Shown: positions 3,873 to 64,000 of the stretch, piece after piece | How positions within the stretch are numbered: position 1 is the stretch's first letter | Layout of the letters: each line of letters begins with the position of its first letter | Origin: a candidate division WOR-3 bacterium | GTDB lineage: Bacteria; Hydrothermota; Tepidihabitantia; Tepidihabitantales; Tepidihabitantaceae | Assembly: GCA_039801085.1 (NCBI GenBank) | Contig: JBDRTY010000001.1 | Coordinates: forward strand, 310,852-374,851 | Length of the DNA: 64,000 nucleotides | Direction of reading: 5' to 3' | Notes under the pieces: generated by a model | Seen by the model: the letters and a program-made list of their open reading frames with translations, nothing else | Databases searched by the model: none | Told to the model about the DNA's origin: nothing | Position numbers and translations under genes: made by a program

Positions 3873-4507
3873 GTCCCGGGCTTTTCGTCCGGGCGGTAAT
3901 GCTCGGTCTGTCTGCCGGCACATCCTGTCTCGGTTTCTGTCTGCCGGTGGTGCTGCCGGTGCTTGCCGGTTCGGACCGGGCCGGTTTTTATCCGGCAGCG
4001 GTCCGGCTGTTATCATTTCTGGCGGGCAGGCTGGTCGCCTATCTCCTTTTCGGTATTCTTGCCGGTCTTGCCGGCGCCCGGCTGAGCGGACCTGTTTTCC
4101 TGCGGACAGCAGCACTGCCGGTTATCTATCTCCTGCTGGGCGGATTGATGATAATTTACGGCATTACCGTCTTTGATCCGTTCACCCGGCTCAGGTTCTG
4201 CCGGCTGATTCAGCCCCAGCTCAATTCGGGCCGGTTTCCTTTTCTCCTCGGGCTGCTGGCAGGGGCAAGTCCCTGTCCGCCGTTTCTGCTCGCACTGGCA
4301 ACTGTTCTTGATTACGCCGGCGTGCTCAGCGGGGCGCTGTTCTTTCTGGTTTTCTTTCTGGCGACCTCGGTCTACTTTCTACCGCTGTTATTTGCCGGTT
4401 TTCTTGTCCGTTGGGATCCGCCCCGGAGCGCTGCCCGCATCGTGGCGGTGGTTACCGGATTTTACTTCGTGGTGCTCGCATTGCGCACACTGTTGAGCGT
4501 ATTTTGA
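3869..4507 (+). CDS. Polytopic membrane protein, DsbD/CcdA-like (thiol-disulfide transporter family) candidate
   Basis: About six hydrophobic helices, with Cys in SCLGFCLP and GASPCPPF motifs. Start overlaps the upstream gene (ATGA). Confidence 0.4.
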   Translation: MSPGLFVRAVMLGLSAGTSCLGFCLPVVLPVLAGSDRAGFYPAAVRLLSFLAGRLVAYLLFGILAGLAGARLSGPVFLRTAALPVIYLLLGGLMIIYGITVFDPFTRLRFCRLIQPQLNSGRFPFLLGLLAGASPCPPFLLALATVLDYAGVLSGALFFLVFFLATSVYFLPLLFAGFLVRWDPPRSAARIVAVVTGFYFVVLALRTLLSVF

Positions 4508-4610
4508 GTCCATTTCTCAGTTGCGTGAATTTATTTGACAAGAGAGAGAGAGAGTATAATTAAAATTAAGACGCAGCCGGATGCCAGCCCCGGCTGTGAA
4601 AGGAGATGCG

Positions 4611-56494: not shown

Positions 56495-57090
56495 AGACCC
56501 TGCTCGTTGACTGCTACCTCAAGGATGCCGAGTCCCGGCTCGTTTATTACCGGCAGATGATTCAGCCCTGGTCCGAGATTTCTGAGATAAAGCTCGCGGA
56601 GCTGAAACCGGGGCTTGACTTTACTCAATACGATGCGGTGGTGCTCACCGGTTCCCAGTGGATGCTTTCGGAAAGGGATGTGCCCGAACCGGTTAAGGCG
56701 GTGCTCCGCCAGCTGCTCCTGCCGGTGCTCGGCATCTGCTTCGGTCACCAGCTCCTTGCCCGCTCCTTCGGTGCGGAGGTCAAAAGCGGGCCGGAATTCA
56801 TCGACCGGATGGAGCGGATCCGGTTTCAGCCCTGGCGCCTGTTTGCCGGGCTGGCGCCGGAGGCGGAGATGCGGGAGAGCCACCGGGAATATGTCACCCC
56901 GGAATCGCTCGAACGGATGGGCTGGGAGATCGGTGCGGTTTCTTCTTCCTGTCCGGTTGAGGCGATAAGGCATCCCCGGCTCCCGCTCTACGGTGTTCAG
57001 TTCCATCCGGAGCGGTCAGAAATAAATGGCGAAATACTGTTCCGCAACTTCTACGAGATCGTCAAATCAGTCCGCACCGGCCAGGGCTGA
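56491..57090 (+). CDS. Class I glutamine amidotransferase-like protein
   Basis: GICFGHQLL (catalytic Cys) and VQFHPE (His/Glu). Start overlaps the folE2 stop. Confidence 0.6.
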   Translation: MKTLLVDCYLKDAESRLVYYRQMIQPWSEISEIKLAELKPGLDFTQYDAVVLTGSQWMLSERDVPEPVKAVLRQLLLPVLGICFGHQLLARSFGAEVKSGPEFIDRMERIRFQPWRLFAGLAPEAEMRESHREYVTPESLERMGWEIGAVSSSCPVEAIRHPRLPLYGVQFHPERSEINGEILFRNFYEIVKSVRTGQG

Positions 57091-57094
57091 CGCA

Positions 57095-57803
57095 GACACA
57101 GCAAAGAGATTTCTCCGCTCCGGTTGAGATGATCCTTTCTGTCATTCCGAGTGGAGCGAAGCGGAATCGAGGAATCCCTTTTTTCTTCTTCCGTCATTCC
57201 GAGCCTGTTGAGGAATCTCCTTCAAGAGATTTCTCGACTCCGCCCTTCGGGCTCCGCTCGAAATGACCGAAAGGGAAGTCATTCCGCGCCTGTCGAGGAA
57301 TCGCTTTTAAGGGATTTCTCCACTGCGGTCGAAATGACGAAAAGGGAAGTCATTCCGGGCTTGTCGAGGAATCTCTTTTAAGCGATTTCTCCACTCCGCC
57401 TCGCTCTGCTCGGCTCCGGTCGAAATGACCGAAAAAAAATGTGCCTGCGGCTTCGCTCCGGTCGAAATGACCCTTACTTGTCATTCCGGGTGGAGCGAAG
57501 TGGAAGCGGTGAATCTCCTTTTTCTCAGACTGAGAGGGATTTCTCGACTGCGCTCGAAATGACCCAAACAGGTTACTGCGGTCGGATAGACCTCTGCGGG
57601 TCGTTCCATGCCTTTCTTTTATTGTCATTCCGAGTGAAGCGAAGCGGAATCGAGGAATCTCTCTTTTCTTCTTCCGTCATTCCGCGCCTGTCGAGGAATC
57701 TTCTTCAAGAGATTTCTCGACTCCGCCCTTCGGGCTCCGCTCGAAATGACCGTTTTATTATTGTGTCATTCCGGGCGAGGCGTCAGCCGAGTCGAGGAAT
57801 CGG
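57095..57803. repeat. Tandem array (about 9 units) of degenerate imperfect-palindromic repeats (gtcattccg...cgaggaatc...gatttctc...cgaaatgac), 40-80 nt each, separated by ~10-nt a/g-rich linkers
   Basis: Unit starts at 57141, 57193, 57278, 57349, 57480, 57624, 57676, 57765. Each unit's two arms are near-reverse-complements (gtcattYcg / cgRaatgac, cgaggaatc / gatttctcg). Confidence 0.7.
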
Positions 57804-57823
57804 TAAATCAGTGCAAAATGCAA

Positions 57824-57864
57824 AATCTGTCAAGCTGTTGACAGATTCAAATGCTGCTTATAAT
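57824..57864 (+). promoter_or_regulatory. Sigma70-like promoter (TTGACA-N15-TATAAT), with a perfect 10-bp inverted repeat AATCTGTCAA-gctg-TTGACAGATT over the -35. Candidate operator.
   Basis: IR arms at 57824..57833 and 57838..57847. -35 at 57838..57843, -10 at 57859..57864. Confidence 0.5.
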
Positions 57865-57884
57865 TACTGTGAGCCGATGAGTTT

Positions 57885-57909
57885 CTACTCTACTCTACTC
57901 TACTCTACT
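57885..57909 (+). repeat. (CTACT)5 pentanucleotide microsatellite in the 5' leader
   Basis: ctactctactctactctactctact lies ~20 nt downstream of the -10. The paralogous locus has 10 copies. Confidence 0.8.
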
Positions 57910-58056
57910 CTACTCCTTATTACTCCAATATCTTAACCCCTCGGGTGAGGTGCGGGCAGGCAGGCGGTGCTGCTGGCGGCAGTCTGCTGCCAGCGGTTGG
58001 AAGTCAGCAGGCAACCTGATAGATTTAAATCATTAAAAGCGGAAAGGAGGTTGAGG

Positions 58057-59658
58057 ATGAAAAAGGCAAGTTTGTTCAGGTTGCTGATTTTAAGCACCGC
58101 AGTGCTCGCGGGGGCGATGTTAGCACAGGAGTGGGAAAGGCTGGAAGATGTGCCGGTTCCGGTTCAGCGCTGGGCATGTCTGACATATTCCTACAGCGAG
58201 TATGGTTCAAGGTCCTATGACACGGTCTGGGGTGTCTTTCCGGCACCTGCCTACGGCAAAACCTGGTTCCTTTATTACGACTGTGTTGACGGCCACTGGC
58301 ATTATCCCGCTGATTCGGTGATCAACCGGGATATGAAACAGACCGCTTTGACCTTTCAATGGCTGGAAGAGGGAGTTGTTTATCTTGTGGGGCAGACATT
58401 GGACGGAGACAACCTCTTCTGGTATCCGTTGAATGAAGGGCGCTGGCATTCAGAGCCGATAACTGCCTTTGCTCTTGGTCCCCGTCCCGGGCTGGCATAT
58501 AAAGCAAATCCCGGCTACAACCAGCAGCTTGAGCCGATACCGGGCTGGCTTTACTGTCTTGCCGGTGGTGGTCAGCAGTTCTGGCGCTACTGGCTGCCGA
58601 GCAGTTATCCGCCGGTGACGGTGGATGGCATCTACCCGGCTCAGGGTGCCCTGATTGCAGATCAGACACCGGTGTTCATCTGGCAGGAGGAAGGGGCAGC
58701 GATTGAATACCGGCTGGTGGTGGCGACCGATCCACAGTTTAGTAACACGGTGATCAATGTCATCACCACGGTGCCGCAGTATTAGGTGGAGACCAGACTG
58801 GCAAATGGCGACTATTACTGGCAGACCGCATCCCGGAGTGCAGGCAGTGGCTGGAAGACCGGACCGGTGCACAGCTTCCGGCTTCAGGGTGGCTGGGAGC
58901 GGCTGGCAGATATCCCGACGCGGGTTGGTGATGGCGGGGCGCTTGCCTACTGCGGGAAGTTCTTCGGCACATCTTCAGACATCTTCATTGCCTTTGTCGG
59001 GGGCGGCGACACCGTCTGCTACGCCTATGTGGACGAGTATAATCGCTGGGTGCGGCTGTATAGTGAAGAGTATGTGCCTCCGCAGAACATCGGCGCAGCT
59101 CTGAGTGCGCATCGGGGGCTTTATATGGACCGAGGGACTCCTTATGCTATTTGGGGGATTGGTGATAACTATTTTCGATTTTATGAGTGGGGGAGATGGA
59201 CTCAAGGAGCTCCAGCGCTCCCAGAAGATATCGGGCCGGGTGCATCTTTAGCTGTGGGGCGGTACCATTTACAACCTTATGGCGCTTATCTTTACTTCAT
59301 TCCCGGGTCCGATCCAAGAAATGGAACACCAAGAGTCTCCTTCTGGCGAAAGCTGGTCTTTGCTTATGACGGGCAGACAAAGGTACAGAAGTCGGGTGGA
59401 ATGGGTGATGAGGGGTTGTATAGCAATCAGATGATTCTGGCTGGTGGTAAAGGGGTGATAGCTTATGTGCTGGACCGACCGGCGAATGTGCGGATAGCGG
59501 TTTTTGATGCTGCGGGCAGAAGGGTTGCTCTGCCATATGCTGGCAGGCAGGATGGAGGTCACCATCTGGTCCGCTGGCATTTCAAGGGTGCCGGAGCGTA
59601 TTTTGTCCTTGTTGACATTGACGATGAAAGGCATAAATTCAAGGTGGTTGTGCGGTAG
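58057..59658 (+). pseudogene. T9SS-secreted surface protein (paralog of 61698..63545) with an in-frame TAG at 58783..58785 inside a conserved Fn3-like segment
   Basis: GAAAGGAGG RBS. Signal peptide MKKASLFRLLILSTAVLAG is identical to the paralog. ORFs 57967..58785 and 58786..59658 share frame 1. CTD ...GAYFVLVDIDDERHKFKVVVR. Confidence 0.55.
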
Positions 59659-59716
59659 AACAAAGGTAAAGGCGGCGGGGCGGAATTGCCCCGCCGCACA
59701 AAGGGGCAGAGGGTTG

Positions 59717-61060
59717 ATGGCTTATTTCCTTTTAATTTTCCTTTGTCCTGCGACTGTCTTCGGACAGGTGGTGGAGCTGGACACAGTATTGACTTTCCCT
59801 CAGCGGATTCTGAATGGTTTTTATGTCTCCGAGTTGAATAAATTATACATTTCCAGCCGTAACAAGATTTATGTGGTTGACTGTTCAACCTGTCAGATGG
59901 GTGAGATTCCGATCAGCTGGGGAGGTGATAATCATTTTGCTTATAATCAGCAGGGCAGGAAATTGTATGTGAAGGACCAGGGATACAGTGACAGTGTGGC
60001 GGTGATTGATGTGCTGGGCGATACGGTTATTAAATGGATTTCAATCAGCGGTATTCAGGCAAGGAACTTGGCTTATGCCAGGAATACTAACCGGCTGTAT
60101 TTCGGTGGTGTGCGGCTTTGTGTAGTGAACTGTGATAATGACAGCATTATCAGGGAGATTGCTCCTCCTCTTTCCGGTTACTATTTCGCGGCGGCGGACT
60201 GGGATGCTGAGCAAATGAAGCTTTATGTGTCATTAGCGAGATGGGGGTATCCGCCGATGATGGCGGTCTATGATACGAGTGAGTCGCTGGTGGCGCTGTT
60301 GCGGGTTCCGATTGTTGAGCCGTTTGCCCTGCAGTTTCATCATCAGCTGGGCAAGGCATATTTTGCCGGCTATGCCATGGATTGTGCGGGTGTGATTGAC
60401 ACGAAAAACGACACCTTTGTTCGCTGGTTTCCGATTCTGGTTGTGTATTCCGGCCTGGTTCCCTATGCGCTGGATACGATTGACGACAAGTTCTACTGTG
60501 CAGCTGCGCGTCAGCATTGGCCCGACACGCTGTATGTGATTGACTGTGTGACCGACTCCATCGTCAAAAAGCTCCTGGAGGCGGGCTGGGGACCTTTGTC
60601 GGTGCGCTGGGCGGCCTGGAGCAACCGGCTGTATTTCACCGGTGGTCCGCGTGGTGAGACGCTGAAGGTCCTGGACTGCCGGACCGATTCGGTGATTGAC
60701 CGGGTGTATCTGGAGGAGTATAGCCTCTTCGGGCCGCCGGACATTGAGCTGGACCCGGTCCGGCACCGCATCTTTGCGATTGGCTGTGACAGCGCGCTGT
60801 ATGTTCTGCGCGAGCTGGAGCAGGGGGTTGAGGAGGAGCGGAGCAACAATCCGGGGCGGTCAGCGCCCACAGTGGTGCGGGGTGTGCTGTATCTGCCGGA
60901 GCGGGCAGGAGCGGCAGGTAAGCCGGTGCTGGTGGACATCACCGGCAGGCGGGTGCGGGAGCTTGTGCCCGGTGCCAATGATGTGCGGGGTCTGGTACCA
61001 GGGGTGTATTTTGTCCGCAGCAATGCCGGCGTGGAACGCAAAGTAGTGATTGCACGGTAG
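59717..61060 (+). CDS. YVTN-family beta-propeller repeat protein with a T9SS C-terminal domain
   Basis: Signal peptide MAYFLLIFLCPATVFGQ. Repeated KLYVS/NRLYF(T)G units. CTD ...GVYFVRSNAGVERKVVIAR. Confidence 0.55.
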   Translation: MAYFLLIFLCPATVFGQVVELDTVLTFPQRILNGFYVSELNKLYISSRNKIYVVDCSTCQMGEIPISWGGDNHFAYNQQGRKLYVKDQGYSDSVAVIDVLGDTVIKWISISGIQARNLAYARNTNRLYFGGVRLCVVNCDNDSIIREIAPPLSGYYFAAADWDAEQMKLYVSLARWGYPPMMAVYDTSESLVALLRVPIVEPFALQFHHQLGKAYFAGYAMDCAGVIDTKNDTFVRWFPILVVYSGLVPYALDTIDDKFYCAAARQHWPDTLYVIDCVTDSIVKKLLEAGWGPLSVRWAAWSNRLYFTGGPRGETLKVLDCRTDSVIDRVYLEEYSLFGPPDIELDPVRHRIFAIGCDSALYVLRELEQGVEEERSNNPGRSAPTVVRGVLYLPERAGAAGKPVLVDITGRRVRELVPGANDVRGLVPGVYFVRSNAGVERKVVIAR

Positions 61061-61423
61061 GAAAGGGATTTCTCCACTGCGCTCGAAATGACATAAACAG
61101 GTTACTGCGGTCGGATAGACCTCTGCGGGTCGTTCCATGGCTTTGCTTTCTTGTCATTCCGAGTGAAGCGAAGCGGAATTGAGGAATCCCTTTTTTCTTC
61201 TTCCGTCATTCCGCGCCTGTCGAGGAATCTCCTTCAAGAGATTTCTCGACTCCGCCCTTCGGGCTCTGCTCGAAATGACCGAAAGAGAAGTCATTCCGCG
61301 CCTGTCGAGGAATCTCTTTTAAGCGATTTCTCCACTCCGCCTCGCTCTGCTCGGCTCCGGTCGAAATGACCGTTTTATTATTGTGTCATTCCGCGCGAGG
61401 CGTCAGCCGAGTCGAGGAATCGG
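61061..61423. repeat. Second, shorter copy of the tandem palindromic-repeat array (4-5 units), homologous to 57525..57803
   Basis: Unit starts at 61153, 61205, 61290, 61385. Also shares the unique ~60-nt segment caaacaggttactgcggtcggatagacctctgcgggtcgttccatg. Confidence 0.7.
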
Positions 61424-61443
61424 TAAATCAGTGCAAATTGCAA

Positions 61444-61485
61444 AATCTGTCAAGCTGTTGACAGAATTCAAATTCTGCTTATAAT
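61444..61485 (+). promoter_or_regulatory. Paralogous promoter/operator: AATCTGTCAA-gctg-TTGACAGAAT, then TTGACA-N16-TATAAT
   Basis: -35 at 61458..61463, -10 at 61480..61485. One-base insertion in the right IR arm and spacer relative to copy 1. Confidence 0.5.
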
Positions 61486-61505
61486 TACTGTGAGCCGATG
61501 AGTTT

Positions 61506-61555
61506 CTACTCTACTCTACTCTACTCTACTCTACTCTACTCTACTCTACTCTACT
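61506..61555 (+). repeat. (CTACT)10 pentanucleotide microsatellite in the 5' leader
   Basis: Ten perfect tandem CTACT copies. The flanks are identical to the (CTACT)5 locus. Confidence 0.8.
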
Positions 61556-61697
61556 CCTTATTACTCCAATATCTTAACCCCTCGGGTGAGGTGCGGGCAG
61601 GCAGGCGGTGCTGCTGGTGGCAATCTGCTGCCAGTGGTTGGAAGTCAGCAGGCAACCTGATAGATTTAAATCATTAAAAGCGGAAAGGAGGTTGAGG

Positions 61698-63545
61698 ATG
61701 AAAAAGGCAAGTTTGTTCAGGTTGCTGATTTTAAGCACCGCAGTGCTCGCGGGTATTGCGTTTGGAAGATGGGAGCCGCTTGATCCGGTTGGCGATGGTG
61801 AAGTGGTTGGTCCTGGCGGCTGTGCGGCACGGGGTAGGGGCTACACCTTCGTTGCAATAGGGGATGGGAGGAGGAAGGTATATGCATTTGATCATGAGGG
61901 TGAAATGTGGGATGAAATAGAAGTACCGATGCCCGAGGCAATTGATTATGCCGGCGCGATGGCATATGAACTTGGATATGGACGTCATTTGTATGTTGTG
62001 ACTGATGAAAGCGGAGGAAAACTTCAGGTGTATCGTTTTTATGAAAATGAAGACTTGGAAGGCGAGTGGTTGCCACCGATTCCATTACCGGAATCAATCG
62101 GTCCTGGTGTGGCACTGGCCTTTGTTCCCTGTGTGAGGGCAGACACAACCCATATTGGTGACCTTTACCTTCTGGTGGGAAAATGCACCCGACATTTTTA
62201 CCGGCGTTCATTTGACTGGATCGCCGAGCTTGATGCCCTCGGTCCGGGCAATGATGCGGAAATAACGGTGCAGGATATCTGTCTTGACTGGCTCCCTGAT
62301 CCCTGGTGGGATTCATACCGGTTACAGGTGTCATCCAATGCAGATTTTACCAGCCTGGTGCTGGATACGGTGATATCGGTTGGTGAATTCAAACCAGCAG
62401 GTGCGGTATTCCCCTCTGCAACCGGCACTTATTACTGGCGGGTCCGGGGTATTAAAGACGGGCATCACTCGGACTGGTCCGAAGCTCAAAGTTTCACTTT
62501 AGCCCAGCAGAATACCTCTCTCAATTACGAGATTATTCCTGCCGATGGGTTGCTGATAAGCGGTGATGAGCTGGTATTTGACTGGCAGCCTCAGAGTGAT
62601 GCGGAATCCTACCGGCTGCAGGTGGCGCTATCCCCGGATTTTTCCGAGCCGGTGATTGATGTTATTACCGATGTGAGTGAATGGGTGGCAGAGCAACCGC
62701 TTGAGACTGGCACATACTACTGGCGGGTGTGCTGCCGGAGAGCAAATGGCTGGGACAGCTGGACTCAACCGATTGAGTTTCAGGTTGAATACGGCTGGCA
62801 GCGACTGCCGGACATTCCATCTGACACCCCGGTTGGAGCCGGTGGTGCGATGTGCTATGTTAAGGCCAGGGATGGTGATACTATGGCACTCTATGTGCTG
62901 GTGGGGAATGGCAGCAGTCAGTTCTGGCGGTTCAATCTCAGTGAGGGTGGAGTCTGGCAGGAGCGGGCTGAAACCCCTTATCCGCAGACCGGCGGCGCAG
63001 CAATTACATCATATCAGAGGTGGCAGCAATCAAGCGACCTGTGGGCGATTTTTGGCGATTTGGTGGAATTCAGGCGTACTTTCAAAATAAATCATAACGG
63101 TTGGGCGAGAATTGATCATCCTCTTCCCCGGGTTTGCGAATACGGTTCATCGATTGTTCGCAACGAGCCTGATTACCATCTTGTTTTAGTCGTTGCCGGT
63201 GAATATCCTGAGGACAGCACCAACTTTTATGCCTGGGTGCCGGATACGGCTAAGGACGGAGAGGAGGGTGCGCAGGCGCGGTCGGCGGGCTTTGGTCCAG
63301 CCGATGTCCGGTTTGGGCGCACCGGCTCTGATCTGTGGCTGAATTACACGCTCTCGGAGCCGGCAGCAGTGGATATCGGTCTGTTTAACCCTGCGGGTCA
63401 GAAGGTGGCAAGTTTATATTCAGGGTGGCAAAGCGCCGGTTGTCATCAGCACCGATACAGACCCGGTTCGCTGATAAAGGGGGTTTGCTTTATCAGGGTT
63501 GACATTGCGGGCAGAAGCACTACTATCAAGCTAACCGCATGGTAG
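61698..63545 (+). CDS. T9SS-secreted surface protein with two Fn3-like modules (intact paralog of 58057..59658)
   Basis: GAAAGGAGG RBS and the same signal peptide. Repeated YRLQVS..DF......TGTYYWRV modules. CTD ...GVCFIRVDIAGRSTTIKLTAW. A GC hairpin follows at 63560..63584. Confidence 0.6.
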   Translation: MKKASLFRLLILSTAVLAGIAFGRWEPLDPVGDGEVVGPGGCAARGRGYTFVAIGDGRRKVYAFDHEGEMWDEIEVPMPEAIDYAGAMAYELGYGRHLYVVTDESGGKLQVYRFYENEDLEGEWLPPIPLPESIGPGVALAFVPCVRADTTHIGDLYLLVGKCTRHFYRRSFDWIAELDALGPGNDAEITVQDICLDWLPDPWWDSYRLQVSSNADFTSLVLDTVISVGEFKPAGAVFPSATGTYYWRVRGIKDGHHSDWSEAQSFTLAQQNTSLNYEIIPADGLLISGDELVFDWQPQSDAESYRLQVALSPDFSEPVIDVITDVSEWVAEQPLETGTYYWRVCCRRANGWDSWTQPIEFQVEYGWQRLPDIPSDTPVGAGGAMCYVKARDGDTMALYVLVGNGSSQFWRFNLSEGGVWQERAETPYPQTGGAAITSYQRWQQSSDLWAIFGDLVEFRRTFKINHNGWARIDHPLPRVCEYGSSIVRNEPDYHLVLVVAGEYPEDSTNFYAWVPDTAKDGEEGAQARSAGFGPADVRFGRTGSDLWLNYTLSEPAAVDIGLFNPAGQKVASLYSGWQSAGCHQHRYRPGSLIKGVCFIRVDIAGRSTTIKLTAW

Positions 63546-63604
63546 CGGAGATAAAACCGGGAGGGGCGGATCCGTCCCCTCCCGACATTCAGGAAGACTG
63601 GGCA

Positions 63605-64000
63605 ATGAGGATTGTATTGTTGCTCTCTTTATTAACCGCTTCAGCAGATGCCGGTCTGGTGCTGGATACGATTCTGCCGGTTCCGGACCCGGTAGAATTT
63701 ATGTATCTGGTTCCGGCCTTCAACAAGCTGTATGCAGGTGGGCGGAGTGCCCGTATCTATGTGTTTAACTGTGAAGATGAGGAGCTTACTGGTATTATTT
63801 CGCCTTCGGGATTTGGCGAGGTTTATCCCTATCCGGCATGGGCAGCGCAACACAACAAGTTATACTTTCCAGTCTCTCACAACCCCATTTCTGATGAGAG
63901 CTGTGCCTTGGCCGTAGTGGATGTTACTACCGACTCCCTTCTAAAGGTGATTGAATTAAATACACGTTATTGGGGTAGCTCTTACTTTCCGATTGCCTGG
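63605..64000 (+). CDS. Secreted beta-propeller-like protein, YVTN-type (5' part; continues past the window end)
   Basis: AGGAAG RBS-like 8 nt upstream. Signal peptide MRIVLLLSLLTASADA. Open frame to the window end with KLYAGG / KLYFPV repeat signatures. No in-frame stop, so it is absent from the ORF track. Confidence 0.45.
   Translation, partial: MRIVLLLSLLTASADAGLVLDTILPVPDPVEFMYLVPAFNKLYAGGRSARIYVFNCEDEELTGIISPSGFGEVYPYPAWAAQHNKLYFPVSHNPISDESCALAVVDVTTDSLLKVIELNTRYWGSSYFPIAW

Follow-up and report, generated by a model that had tools for sequence, protein, structure and literature searches.

Introduction

Leader-peptide phase variation with attenuation has been dissected experimentally at the pil1 locus of Streptococcus gallolyticus, and pil3 is named likewise (PMC3894217). 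At pil1, a promoter is followed by a leader peptide that contains (GCAGA)22, a stem-loop of -18.7 kcal/mol and the ribosome-binding site (RBS) of pilA (Danne et al., 2014, PMC3894217). One reading frame ends 39 nt before the stem-loop and gives low expression, whereas the two others end in or after it and give high expression (PMC3894217). Here, we analyze the 5' leaders of two genes for secreted proteins, which we call copy A and copy C, in a 64,000-nt stretch of DNA (the window) from a candidate division WOR-3 bacterium (assembly GCA_039801085.1, contig JBDRTY010000001.1, positions 310,852-374,851). We propose, with even confidence, that these leaders carry a phase-variable switch based on a leader open reading frame (ORF) and located within a recombining 5' module of surface-protein cassettes. 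By analogy, we judge that this element may work like pil1, possibly with a translational readout of the erm type.

The order of elements is alike in the two systems: a promoter, a leader ORF with a pentanucleotide repeat, a stem-loop of about -18 to -23 kcal/mol, and the RBS and ATG of a surface operon. In both cases the leader ORF has its own start codon and holds the whole of a repeat whose unit is not a triplet, one short frame ends before the stem-loop while two end within or beyond it, and strains vary in repeat number. There are also differences. The streptococcal locus encodes a Firmicutes sortase pilus, whereas the WOR-3 genes encode secreted proteins with tails that resemble the sorting domains of the type IX secretion system (T9SS), and about 22 repeat units at pil1 compare with 2-10 in the WOR-3 module. 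The WOR-3 hairpin is not followed by a U-tract and thus does not have the feature of an intrinsic terminator, and its readout may be the unmasking of a helix between the leader and codons 4-12 of the downstream gene rather than anti-termination. Moreover, the WOR-3 module is found on several recombining paralogue cassettes, and its orthologues use other repeat units.

Several further systems share individual aspects with the WOR-3 leaders. In ermC-type attenuation, the position of the ribosome on a leader ORF decides whether the downstream initiation region is masked; there, the ribosome is stalled by a drug, whereas in the WOR-3 bacterium a heritable frame change would arise by repeat slippage. 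In Moraxella catarrhalis, the number of AGAT units in the 5' untranslated region (UTR) of uspA2 affects the expression of a surface protein. This repeat likewise lies between the transcription start and the start codon, but uspA2 is a single locus, and we know of no leader-ORF mechanism described for it. The Mycoplasma vsp and vlp genes encode lipoproteins with a lipobox, and in vlp the hypermutable tract, a poly(A) run, separates the -35 box from the -10 box. Similar to the WOR-3 module, these genes combine such a 5' tract with a near-identical 5' region and signal peptide on divergent tandem paralogues, although the WOR-3 signal peptide is not followed by a cysteine.

Paralogous surface-protein loci with a common upstream region are also known from Haemophilus influenzae, where the (ATCTTTC)n repeats of hmw1ABC and hmw2ABC pair with a G-rich arm to form a 122-nt hairpin that is cleaved by RNase III (PMC12721329). 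Expression of these loci falls monotonically with the number of units, n, and recombination between the upstream regions changes repeat number (PMC12721329). The WOR-3 loci resemble hmw in that their paralogues have upstream sequence in common and that a pyrimidine-rich repeat, with a G-rich stretch behind it, lies in the 5' UTR, but their geometry points to a dependence on n mod 3 and not to a monotonic one. A hairpin of the hmw type between the repeat and the downstream leader was considered and rejected: the predicted duplex has an energy of -22.6 kcal/mol compared to a shuffle mean of -22.7 ± 5.5 kcal/mol, and half of the shuffled sequences (0.50) reach the same or a lower energy.

Results

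Leader ORFs of two secreted-protein genes hold a length-variable repeat

The leader of copy A (57865-58056) extends from just after a promoter-like -10 box to ATG 58057, where a gene for a secreted protein starts, and the leader of copy C (61486-61697) lies ahead of ATG 61698. We take these ATGs as the main starts because the Shine-Dalgarno (SD) sequence GGAAAGGAGG precedes them, the signal peptide opens there and orthologues start at the equivalent methionine. In-frame ORFs that open with GTG at 57967 and 61608, whose translation an earlier, sequence-only reading of this stretch had seen as a threat to a leader RNA, consequently have no bearing on the leaders. The elements of the two leaders are as follows.

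57838-57864, + strand: sigma-70-type promoter of copy A, TTGACA-15 nt-TATAAT
57877-57936, + strand: leader ORF of copy A, from its ATG through (CTACT)6 to TAA 57934-57936, 19 codons, short state
57884-57915, + strand: pentanucleotide repeat of copy A, (TCTAC)6.4 = (CTACT)6, 100% match
57948-58017, + strand: extended leader hairpin of copy A, -35.3 kcal/mol, with a 13-bp core stem-loop at 57969-57997, -23.4 kcal/mol
57998-58036, + strand: 3' leader segment with the long-frame stops TGA 58017-58019 and TAA 58034-58036, complementary to codons 4-12
58041-58059, + strand: SD sequence GGAAAGGAGG (58041-58050) and main start ATG 58057-58059
58057-58113, + strand: codons 1-19, encoding the signal peptide MKKASLFRLLILSTAVLAG, with which the shared module ends on its 3' side
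61443-61485, + strand: operator-like palindrome and promoter of copy C, TTGACA-16-TATAAT, 12/12 consensus positions
61498-61677, + strand: leader ORF of copy C, from its ATG through (CTACT)10 and the hairpin to TAA 61675-61677, 59 codons, long state
61505-61556, + strand: pentanucleotide repeat of copy C, (TCTAC)10.4 = (CTACT)10, 100% match
61589-61658, + strand: extended leader hairpin of copy C, -30.1 kcal/mol, with its core at 61610-61638, -18.2 kcal/mol

Both leader ATGs (57877 and 61498) are found 12 nt past the -10 box. The ORF of copy A ends 12 nt 5' of the extended hairpin, and that of copy C continues until 21 nt before the main ATG. The CTACT tract and the ATG that shortly precedes it, both left out of consideration by the sequence-only reading, turn out to be key features of the locus.

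We compared these leaders with DNA of other WOR-3 assemblies (loci L001-L023; 195 kb compared in total). Seven copies of the module could be studied, namely copies A and C of the window and five from L001, L002 (two), L010 and L011, and their CTACT tracts have 2, 2 plus a degenerate unit, 5 imperfect, 5 imperfect, 6, 6 and 10 units. The L001 locus matches window positions 61390-64000 with 0 mismatches over 2.6 kb, and the only difference between them is a 20-nt indel that corresponds to four CTACT units. At the gene C locus, L001 therefore has 6 units in place of the 10 found in the window, and the frame of the leader ORF is altered. The window and L001 versions of copy C are one strain-level sequence in two frame states.

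Perfect repeats of at least 4 copies and at least 14 nt occur in the 195 kb only in these leaders, except for an (AG)7 tract at window positions 4541-4554 that is described below. In addition, contigs L014, L020 and L023 begin immediately 3' of the repeat, which is the effect expected of population heterogeneity in repeat length on assembly. The leaders thus display three hallmarks of a contingency locus, a perfect tandem repeat with a copy number that varies between near-identical sequences and a position between a consensus promoter and a signal-peptide gene with a T9SS-like tail.

Repeat position and frame geometry recur in other WOR-3 lineages

The repeat and leader-ORF architecture was compared in four lineages (the window group, L003, L018/L019 and L021/L022); protein-guided scans recovered only 3 and 5 loci of other lineages. 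Orthologues from the three other WOR-3 lineages, at 31-54% protein identity, carry a repeat at the equivalent site, 3' of the promoter and 5' of the hairpins. The unit differs: L003 has (AGAC)3, L021 and L022 have (TA)10 at the same leader position, and L018 and L019 have (ACAG)10 and (ACAG)7, respectively, upstream of an identical protein. Unit lengths over the four lineages are 5, 4, 4 and 2 nt, none of which is divisible by 3. The promoters of the other lineages are similar to TTGACA-16-TATAAT, with TTGACA-17-TATGAA read by eye in L003, and the repeat lies 43-76 nt past their -10 box.

Every lineage has an ATG 6-18 nt past the -10 box that opens an ORF through the repeat (also in L018, L021 and L003). 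In L011, this ATG is preceded by GAGGTGAG, a strong RBS. Gene callers have already annotated such leader ORFs in L003 (206-466, overlapping the main ATG) and in L011 (708-845). In all four lineages, one of the frames that follow the repeat reaches a stop within 1-11 codons, and the other two continue for 33-87 codons before they meet one. The short-frame stop lies 9-28 nt upstream of the first strong hairpin, and the long-frame stops are located inside or past the hairpins. In the CTACT-containing module, the frames map to n as follows.

n mod 3 = 0: stop TAA 57934 / 61575, 121 nt before the main ATG; window copy A and L001 copy C (n = 6)
n mod 3 = 1: stop TAA 58034 / 61675, 21 nt before the main ATG; window copy C (n = 10)
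n mod 3 = 2: stop TGA 58017 / 61658, at the 3' base of the hairpin and 38 nt before the main ATG; L002 copy A, L010 and L011

Copy C of L002 likewise ends early, in the same frame as n mod 3 = 0, at TGA 4078 and 109 nt before its own ATG. A shuffle test on the length of the second-longest frame, chosen post hoc, gave P = 0.055, 0.005, 0.18 and 0.003 (combined ~1e-4), and these frame-openness statistics are suggestive support for the leader-ORF geometry. At L018 (628-936), one post-repeat frame is open throughout and is in frame with the main ORF, so that some repeat numbers would add an N-terminal extension of ~100 aa ahead of the signal peptide.

One leader hairpin and a predicted helix with the signal-peptide codons

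From sequence inspection, the leader had been described as hairpin-rich and as containing three stable stems. Our analysis retains one of these, the 13-bp hairpin at 57969-57997 (-23.4 kcal/mol in copy A, -18.2 kcal/mol in copy C). The two small stems are lost in related copies, cctc/gagg through a C-to-A change in three of them and ggttg/caacc through a T-to-C change in four, and the minimum free energy of the whole leader is not below that of dinucleotide shuffles (z = -0.45 and +0.74), so that a leader hairpin-rich beyond chance is not borne out. The 13-bp stem contains 2-5 G-U pairs, and substitutions in the stem are mostly C/U opposite G. These changes are compatible with an RNA hairpin of the sense strand, but are not significant. 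A U-rich hairpin tail is present in L021 only.

When the leader is folded together with the first 60 nt of the coding sequence, positions 58000-58026 are predicted to pair with codons 4-12 (58068-58091). This helix includes a perfect 9-bp match, GCAACCUGA/UCAGGUUGC, and would enclose the SD sequence and the ATG in its loop. Both long-frame stop codons lie in or beside its 5' arm. The predicted duplex energy is -24.0 kcal/mol compared to -15.0 ± 3.0 kcal/mol for shuffled sequences (P = 0.003-0.009, post hoc), and P = 0.06 when compared with synonymous recodings of the signal peptide, again post hoc.

A separate motif was seen in the leaders of sister lineages, CCGCGGCACCGAGCGG at L003 371-386 and L004 5920-5935 and CGGCGGCACCGAGCC at L018 852-864. 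Its 4-bp stem has undergone what appears to be a single compensatory exchange, C-G to G-C, and the motif may be a small conserved leader hairpin; it is absent from the leader in the window.

The leader belongs to a larger 5' module

The two paralogues had been reported to share the leader with only 3-4 substitutions over ~150 nt, and this is borne out by our analysis. A 33-nt leader core occurs exactly twice in the window compared to 0.00 expected occurrences, and the 141 nt from the repeat tract to the ATG differ between copies A and C by exactly 3 substitutions, all of them transitions. An alignment of both regions shows that near-identity spans ~57532-58112 and ~61061-61753, or about 0.6 kb. 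From 5' to 3', this block consists of an array similar to repetitive extragenic palindromes (REP-like), (TGCAAAA)2, a palindrome over the -35 box, the promoter, the CTACT tract, the leader, GGAAAGGAGG, the ATG and 19 codons. Its 3' end coincides with exactly the 19 signal-peptide codons (MKKASLFRLLILSTAVLAG); identity collapses at codon 20, past which proteins A and C are 26-31% identical.

The claim that the leader is more strongly conserved than the coding region holds for this comparison of paralogues, but is reversed between orthologues. Gene C of the window and of L002 differ by 1.03% in their coding sequence, whereas their leaders differ by 10 substitutions and 5 gapped positions per 141 nt. 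Over all gene C orthologues compared, coding sequences differ by 1.03-1.14% and third codon positions by 1.14%, while the leaders carry 10-13 substitutions and 5-7 gapped positions in 141 nt. This amounts to a divergence 7-10 times faster than that of the coding sequence and exceeds that of third codon positions, so that the leader evolves several-fold faster than silent sites.

In addition, the same module is found on at least 3 paralogues at 28-50% protein identity (window A, window C together with L002 C, and L002 A). The leader of gene A in the window is closest to the leader of gene A in L002 (2 differences), not to that of its neighbor in the window, and the two gene A proteins are 28% identical. 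A near-identical module on divergent paralogues, combined with fast leader divergence in orthologues, therefore argues for recombination or gene conversion and not for constraint at the RNA level. Leader identity is not evidence for RNA-level selection, and the module is best described as a recombining cassette head that evolves in concert.

The pyrimidine-rich segment just 3' of the repeat occurs in two haplotypes, CTTATTACTCCAATATCTTAACCCCTCGGG and CTTCCTTTTACTTCACAACCTCAACCCATCKGG (L002 4045-4075, L010 97-127 and L011 739-769 compared to window 57916-57943). The distribution of these haplotypes follows neither the hairpin variants nor the downstream gene, which points to mosaic gene-conversion tracts with a breakpoint near the repeat.

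Searches for a structured RNA

The Rfam and covariation checks that had been suggested for a cis-regulatory RNA were both negative. A permissive Rfam scan of 57000-62200 gave sub-threshold chance hits only. The best of these, at 21.7-21.9 bits, were Zeta-pan (21.7 bits; gathering threshold 56.7) and an L31-Actinobacteria leader (gathering threshold 35), the latter inside coding sequence, and BTnc231 scored 21 bits against 80. No match in the window reached its gathering threshold, and a scan of six related loci at gathering thresholds returned nothing.

RNAalifold predicted 42 pairs from six leader copies, in which variation is scarce. Only one pair is compensatory, and 107/500 shuffles score as high. 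Moreover, we detected no homologue outside the species group: exact-pattern scans gave 0 hits for a 21-nt leader core in GTDB representative genomes and 0 hits for a 25-nt leader segment in JGI metagenomes, and a covariance model of the leader (R1), run against the orthologous loci with filters off, found only generic hairpins elsewhere (E >= 0.13).

Upstream elements and neighboring genes

The following features flank or contain the elements described above.

57100-57800, + strand: REP-like nested palindromic units (GATTTCTCG...CGAAATGAC / GTCATTCCG...CGAGGAATC) upstream of copy A, duplicated block from ~57532
57824-57847, no strand assigned: perfect 10-bp inverted repeat AATCTGTCAA-GCTG-TTGACAGATT, overlapping the -35 box and operator-like
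58057-59658, + strand: gene A, secreted protein with a C-terminal tail resembling a T9SS sorting domain, in-frame TAG at 58783-58785
59720-61060, + strand: gene B, YVTN beta-propeller-repeat protein, second gene of the cassette
61061-61420, + strand: REP-like array upstream of copy C, same unit type as that of copy A
61698-63545, + strand: gene C, 615-aa secreted protein, codons 1-19 (61698-61754) in the shared module

REP-like units are found in the window almost only at 57100-57800 and 61060-61420, all on the + strand, with 3 isolated 8-9-mer matches elsewhere. They measure ~35-70 nt, and their number varies between copies and strains (a 91-nt indel). These units could be terminators, insulators or recombination substrates.

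Inverted repeats of 10-11 bp are located at 57824-57847 and 61443-61468, and in both cases the right arm is the -35 hexamer. In L011, the arms are kept and the 4-nt spacer is TCTA in place of GCTG. The palindrome looks like a putative operator of a dimeric repressor, for which kept arms and a changed spacer are the expected pattern. The promoter spacer measures 15 nt in copy A compared to 16 nt in all six other module copies. A search for flanking inverted repeats of the invertible-promoter type found only the -35 palindrome and the leader-coding helix. Just upstream of the palindrome, (TGCAAAA)n has 2 units in the window (57812-57826) and 3 units in both L002 modules (41-61 and 3951-3971), and is a second length-variable tract of the module.

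A further repeat lies within a promoter elsewhere in the window. At 4535-4560, TTGACA-(AG)7-TATAAT precedes a small ORF with a signal peptide (ATG ~4612), and (AG)7 at 4541-4554 makes up the whole 14-nt promoter spacer. The spacer measures 16 nt in the other consensus promoters of the window, and one more unit, giving (AG)8, would therefore bring the spacing back to its optimum. This site looks like a classic promoter-spacer phase-variation locus, and the WOR-3 organism appears to use repeat-based contingency loci more than once.

The in-frame TAG of gene A falls within a conserved domain (VPQY*VETRLANGDYYW). Given this stop and the 15-nt promoter spacer, the cassette of copy A may be silent or in decay, and read-through or a sequencing error are also possible. 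The C-terminal tail of gene A scores 22.9 bits against TIGR04183 (cut-off 23), whereas the homologue P0015 scores 30.4 bits, and homologues carry FlgD_ig / Por_Secre_tail (T9SS type A sorting) C-termini. The protein encoded by gene C has identical counterparts at NCBI under the name 'candidate division WOR-3 bacterium'.

The cassettes differ between assemblies. Orthologous loci encode a protein of ~610 aa followed by one of ~460 aa, to which L004 and L006 add a third of ~690 aa. In L011 (1-900), a glutamine-amidotransferase gene is directly followed by the module and gene C, and the A-B cassette is missing, while L002 (1-4200) has a different A'-B' cassette with 28-32% protein identity to A and B of the window. 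In L001 (3414-4014), a gene D is followed by a third module, within whose repeat the contig breaks off; this gene D closes with a copy of the final ~170 nt of gene B. In L012 (1791-2207), the third promoter after gene D is absent. The cassettes appear to form a tandem, strain-variable array of genes for secreted surface proteins.

Discussion

We have described a tandem repeat that varies in length between near-identical sequences and that lies within a leader ORF upstream of genes for secreted proteins. The mechanism that we favor for this phase-variable leader-ORF switch would begin with transcription from the consensus promoter, upstream of the leader ATG, and with translation of the leader ORF. 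Gain or loss of CTACT units by strand slippage, in steps of 5 nt and thus not of whole triplets, would shift the frame of the ORF that opens at ATG 57877/61498, and would do so reversibly. When n = 0 mod 3, ribosomes would stop at TAA 57934 or 61575, 5' of the hairpin. When n = 1 or 2 mod 3, they would pass through the 13-bp hairpin and stop 21 or 38 nt before the main ATG, where the long-frame stops fall inside or beside the helix predicted to enclose the SD sequence and the start codon. Ribosome transit would melt these leader structures and thereby raise expression of the downstream gene. The readout could be anti-termination as in pil1 or an unmasking of the translation-initiation region.

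A number of observations weigh against this proposal. There is no U-tract 3' of the hairpin (its tail is GGUUGGAAG), and a terminator scan of the leader found no site; because the U-tract is missing, unmasking of the initiation region is more likely than anti-termination. On the other hand, predicted accessibility of the SD sequence hardly changes with n when judged by folding alone (the effect is negligible for n >= 4). The leader ATG in the window is preceded only by a weak SD sequence (GTGAG). One related lineage (L004, L007 and L016) has a homologous leader that carries no repeat, and the frames of this repeat-less leader in L004 are similarly open. As the L004 leader shares sequence with that of L003, frame openness may stem in part from composition or shared ancestry. 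In addition, the frame and duplex statistics were designed after the pattern had been seen, the sample of four lineages and seven module copies is small, the difference of 10 versus 6 units is taken from assemblies and not from single reads, and our case as a whole is read from sequence.

A wider version of this proposal would extend the switch to several WOR-3 lineages. In that version, the repeat in the leader ORF determines how far ribosomes advance and thereby gates translation initiation, not transcription termination, through the helix between leader and signal-peptide codons. The module serves as portable homology for the shuffling, gain and loss of cassettes, and one repeat unit has given way to another time and again (CTACT, ACAG, TA) within an architecture that was kept. 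We put this version forward tentatively, as a possibility that we find somewhat doubtful.

Other explanations of the locus differ in how they treat the repeat. It could act as a contingency or rheostat element independently of any leader ORF, its length altering 5'-UTR length, mRNA stability or processing, and the hairpins serving as stabilizers or processing sites. Such a role would be in line with the shown polymorphism, with the position of the repeat in a 5' UTR common to two paralogous surface-protein loci and with the pyrimidine-rich repeat followed by a G-rich stretch, as in hmw (PMC12721329). However, the repeat is unpaired in minimum-free-energy folds and its duplex with the downstream leader is at chance level, and this explanation, which we consider rather unlikely, leaves the non-triplet units, the preceding ATGs and the recurrent frame geometry unaccounted for. 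It is somewhat less likely still that the leader is a passenger with no function of its own, a long 5' UTR of the ordinary kind carried along with the duplicated or converted block, in which repeat polymorphism reflects neutral slippage and has no effect on regulation. Repeats of different units at one position in four lineages, essentially absent from the rest of the 195 kb, would be surprising for such a passenger, as would the complementarity of the leader to the signal-peptide codons, which is above chance, and the hairpin-stem substitutions, which are mostly GC to GU and keep pairing on the sense strand only. In favor of it are the identity that reaches far past the leader on both sides, the faster divergence of the leader than of coding sequence between orthologues, and a leader with neither a fold-energy signal nor significant covariation.

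Control at the DNA level is a third alternative, in which the hairpin region and the -35 palindrome are sites for transcription factors and the repeat alters the spacing between promoter and operator. The perfect 10-bp inverted repeat over the -35 box with its conserved arms and variable spacer, and the promoter-spacer repeat at 4535-4560 in the same genome, would fit this model. The 2-5 G-U pairs of the 13-bp stem, however, would be A-C mismatches in the symmetry of duplex DNA, which favors an RNA-level element of the sense strand, and a repeat 43-76 nt past the -10 box in other lineages is unlikely for a spacing-sensitive operator. We regard DNA-level control as improbable. The original proposal of the sequence-only reading was a riboswitch, RNA thermometer or protein-binding RNA platform conserved for its fold. 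Of this view, a long transcribed leader with a probable role in cis has held up. The length of the leader, its one strong hairpin and the ability of part of the SD sequence to pair with CUCCUU or CUCC motifs are what one might expect of such an RNA, but neither the window nor the related leaders have an Rfam hit, fold z-scores are ~0 and covariation is not above control. Together with exact-pattern scans that gave 0 hits in GTDB representatives and JGI metagenomes, a covariance model that found no homologue in orthologous leaders, and a leader that diverges faster than third codon positions between orthologues, this makes a riboswitch, thermometer or protein platform very improbable.

Finally, our analysis places a known regulatory architecture in an uncultured phylum, where it recurs over lineages with different repeat units. 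A literature search on phase variation in WOR-3 found no papers. To our knowledge, phase variation driven by repeats has been described almost exclusively in host-adapted pathogens, and one streptococcal species is the only one for which the leader-peptide version has been demonstrated. Because each lineage has a different repeat unit, the leader-ORF design would be either ancient or easily re-invented. The locus also illustrates that near-identity of paralogue 5' regions can mean a gene-converted expression cassette and not a structured RNA, and contig breaks at modules and repeats may hide such loci in metagenome-assembled genomes. If the lineage-spanning switch is true, mutability itself would be under selection in an environmental bacterium that lives freely. 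Recurrence of the architecture upstream of orthologous secreted-protein operons in four WOR-3 lineages suggests that surface contingency switching, for example against phage or grazers, may be general in uncultured environmental bacteria.

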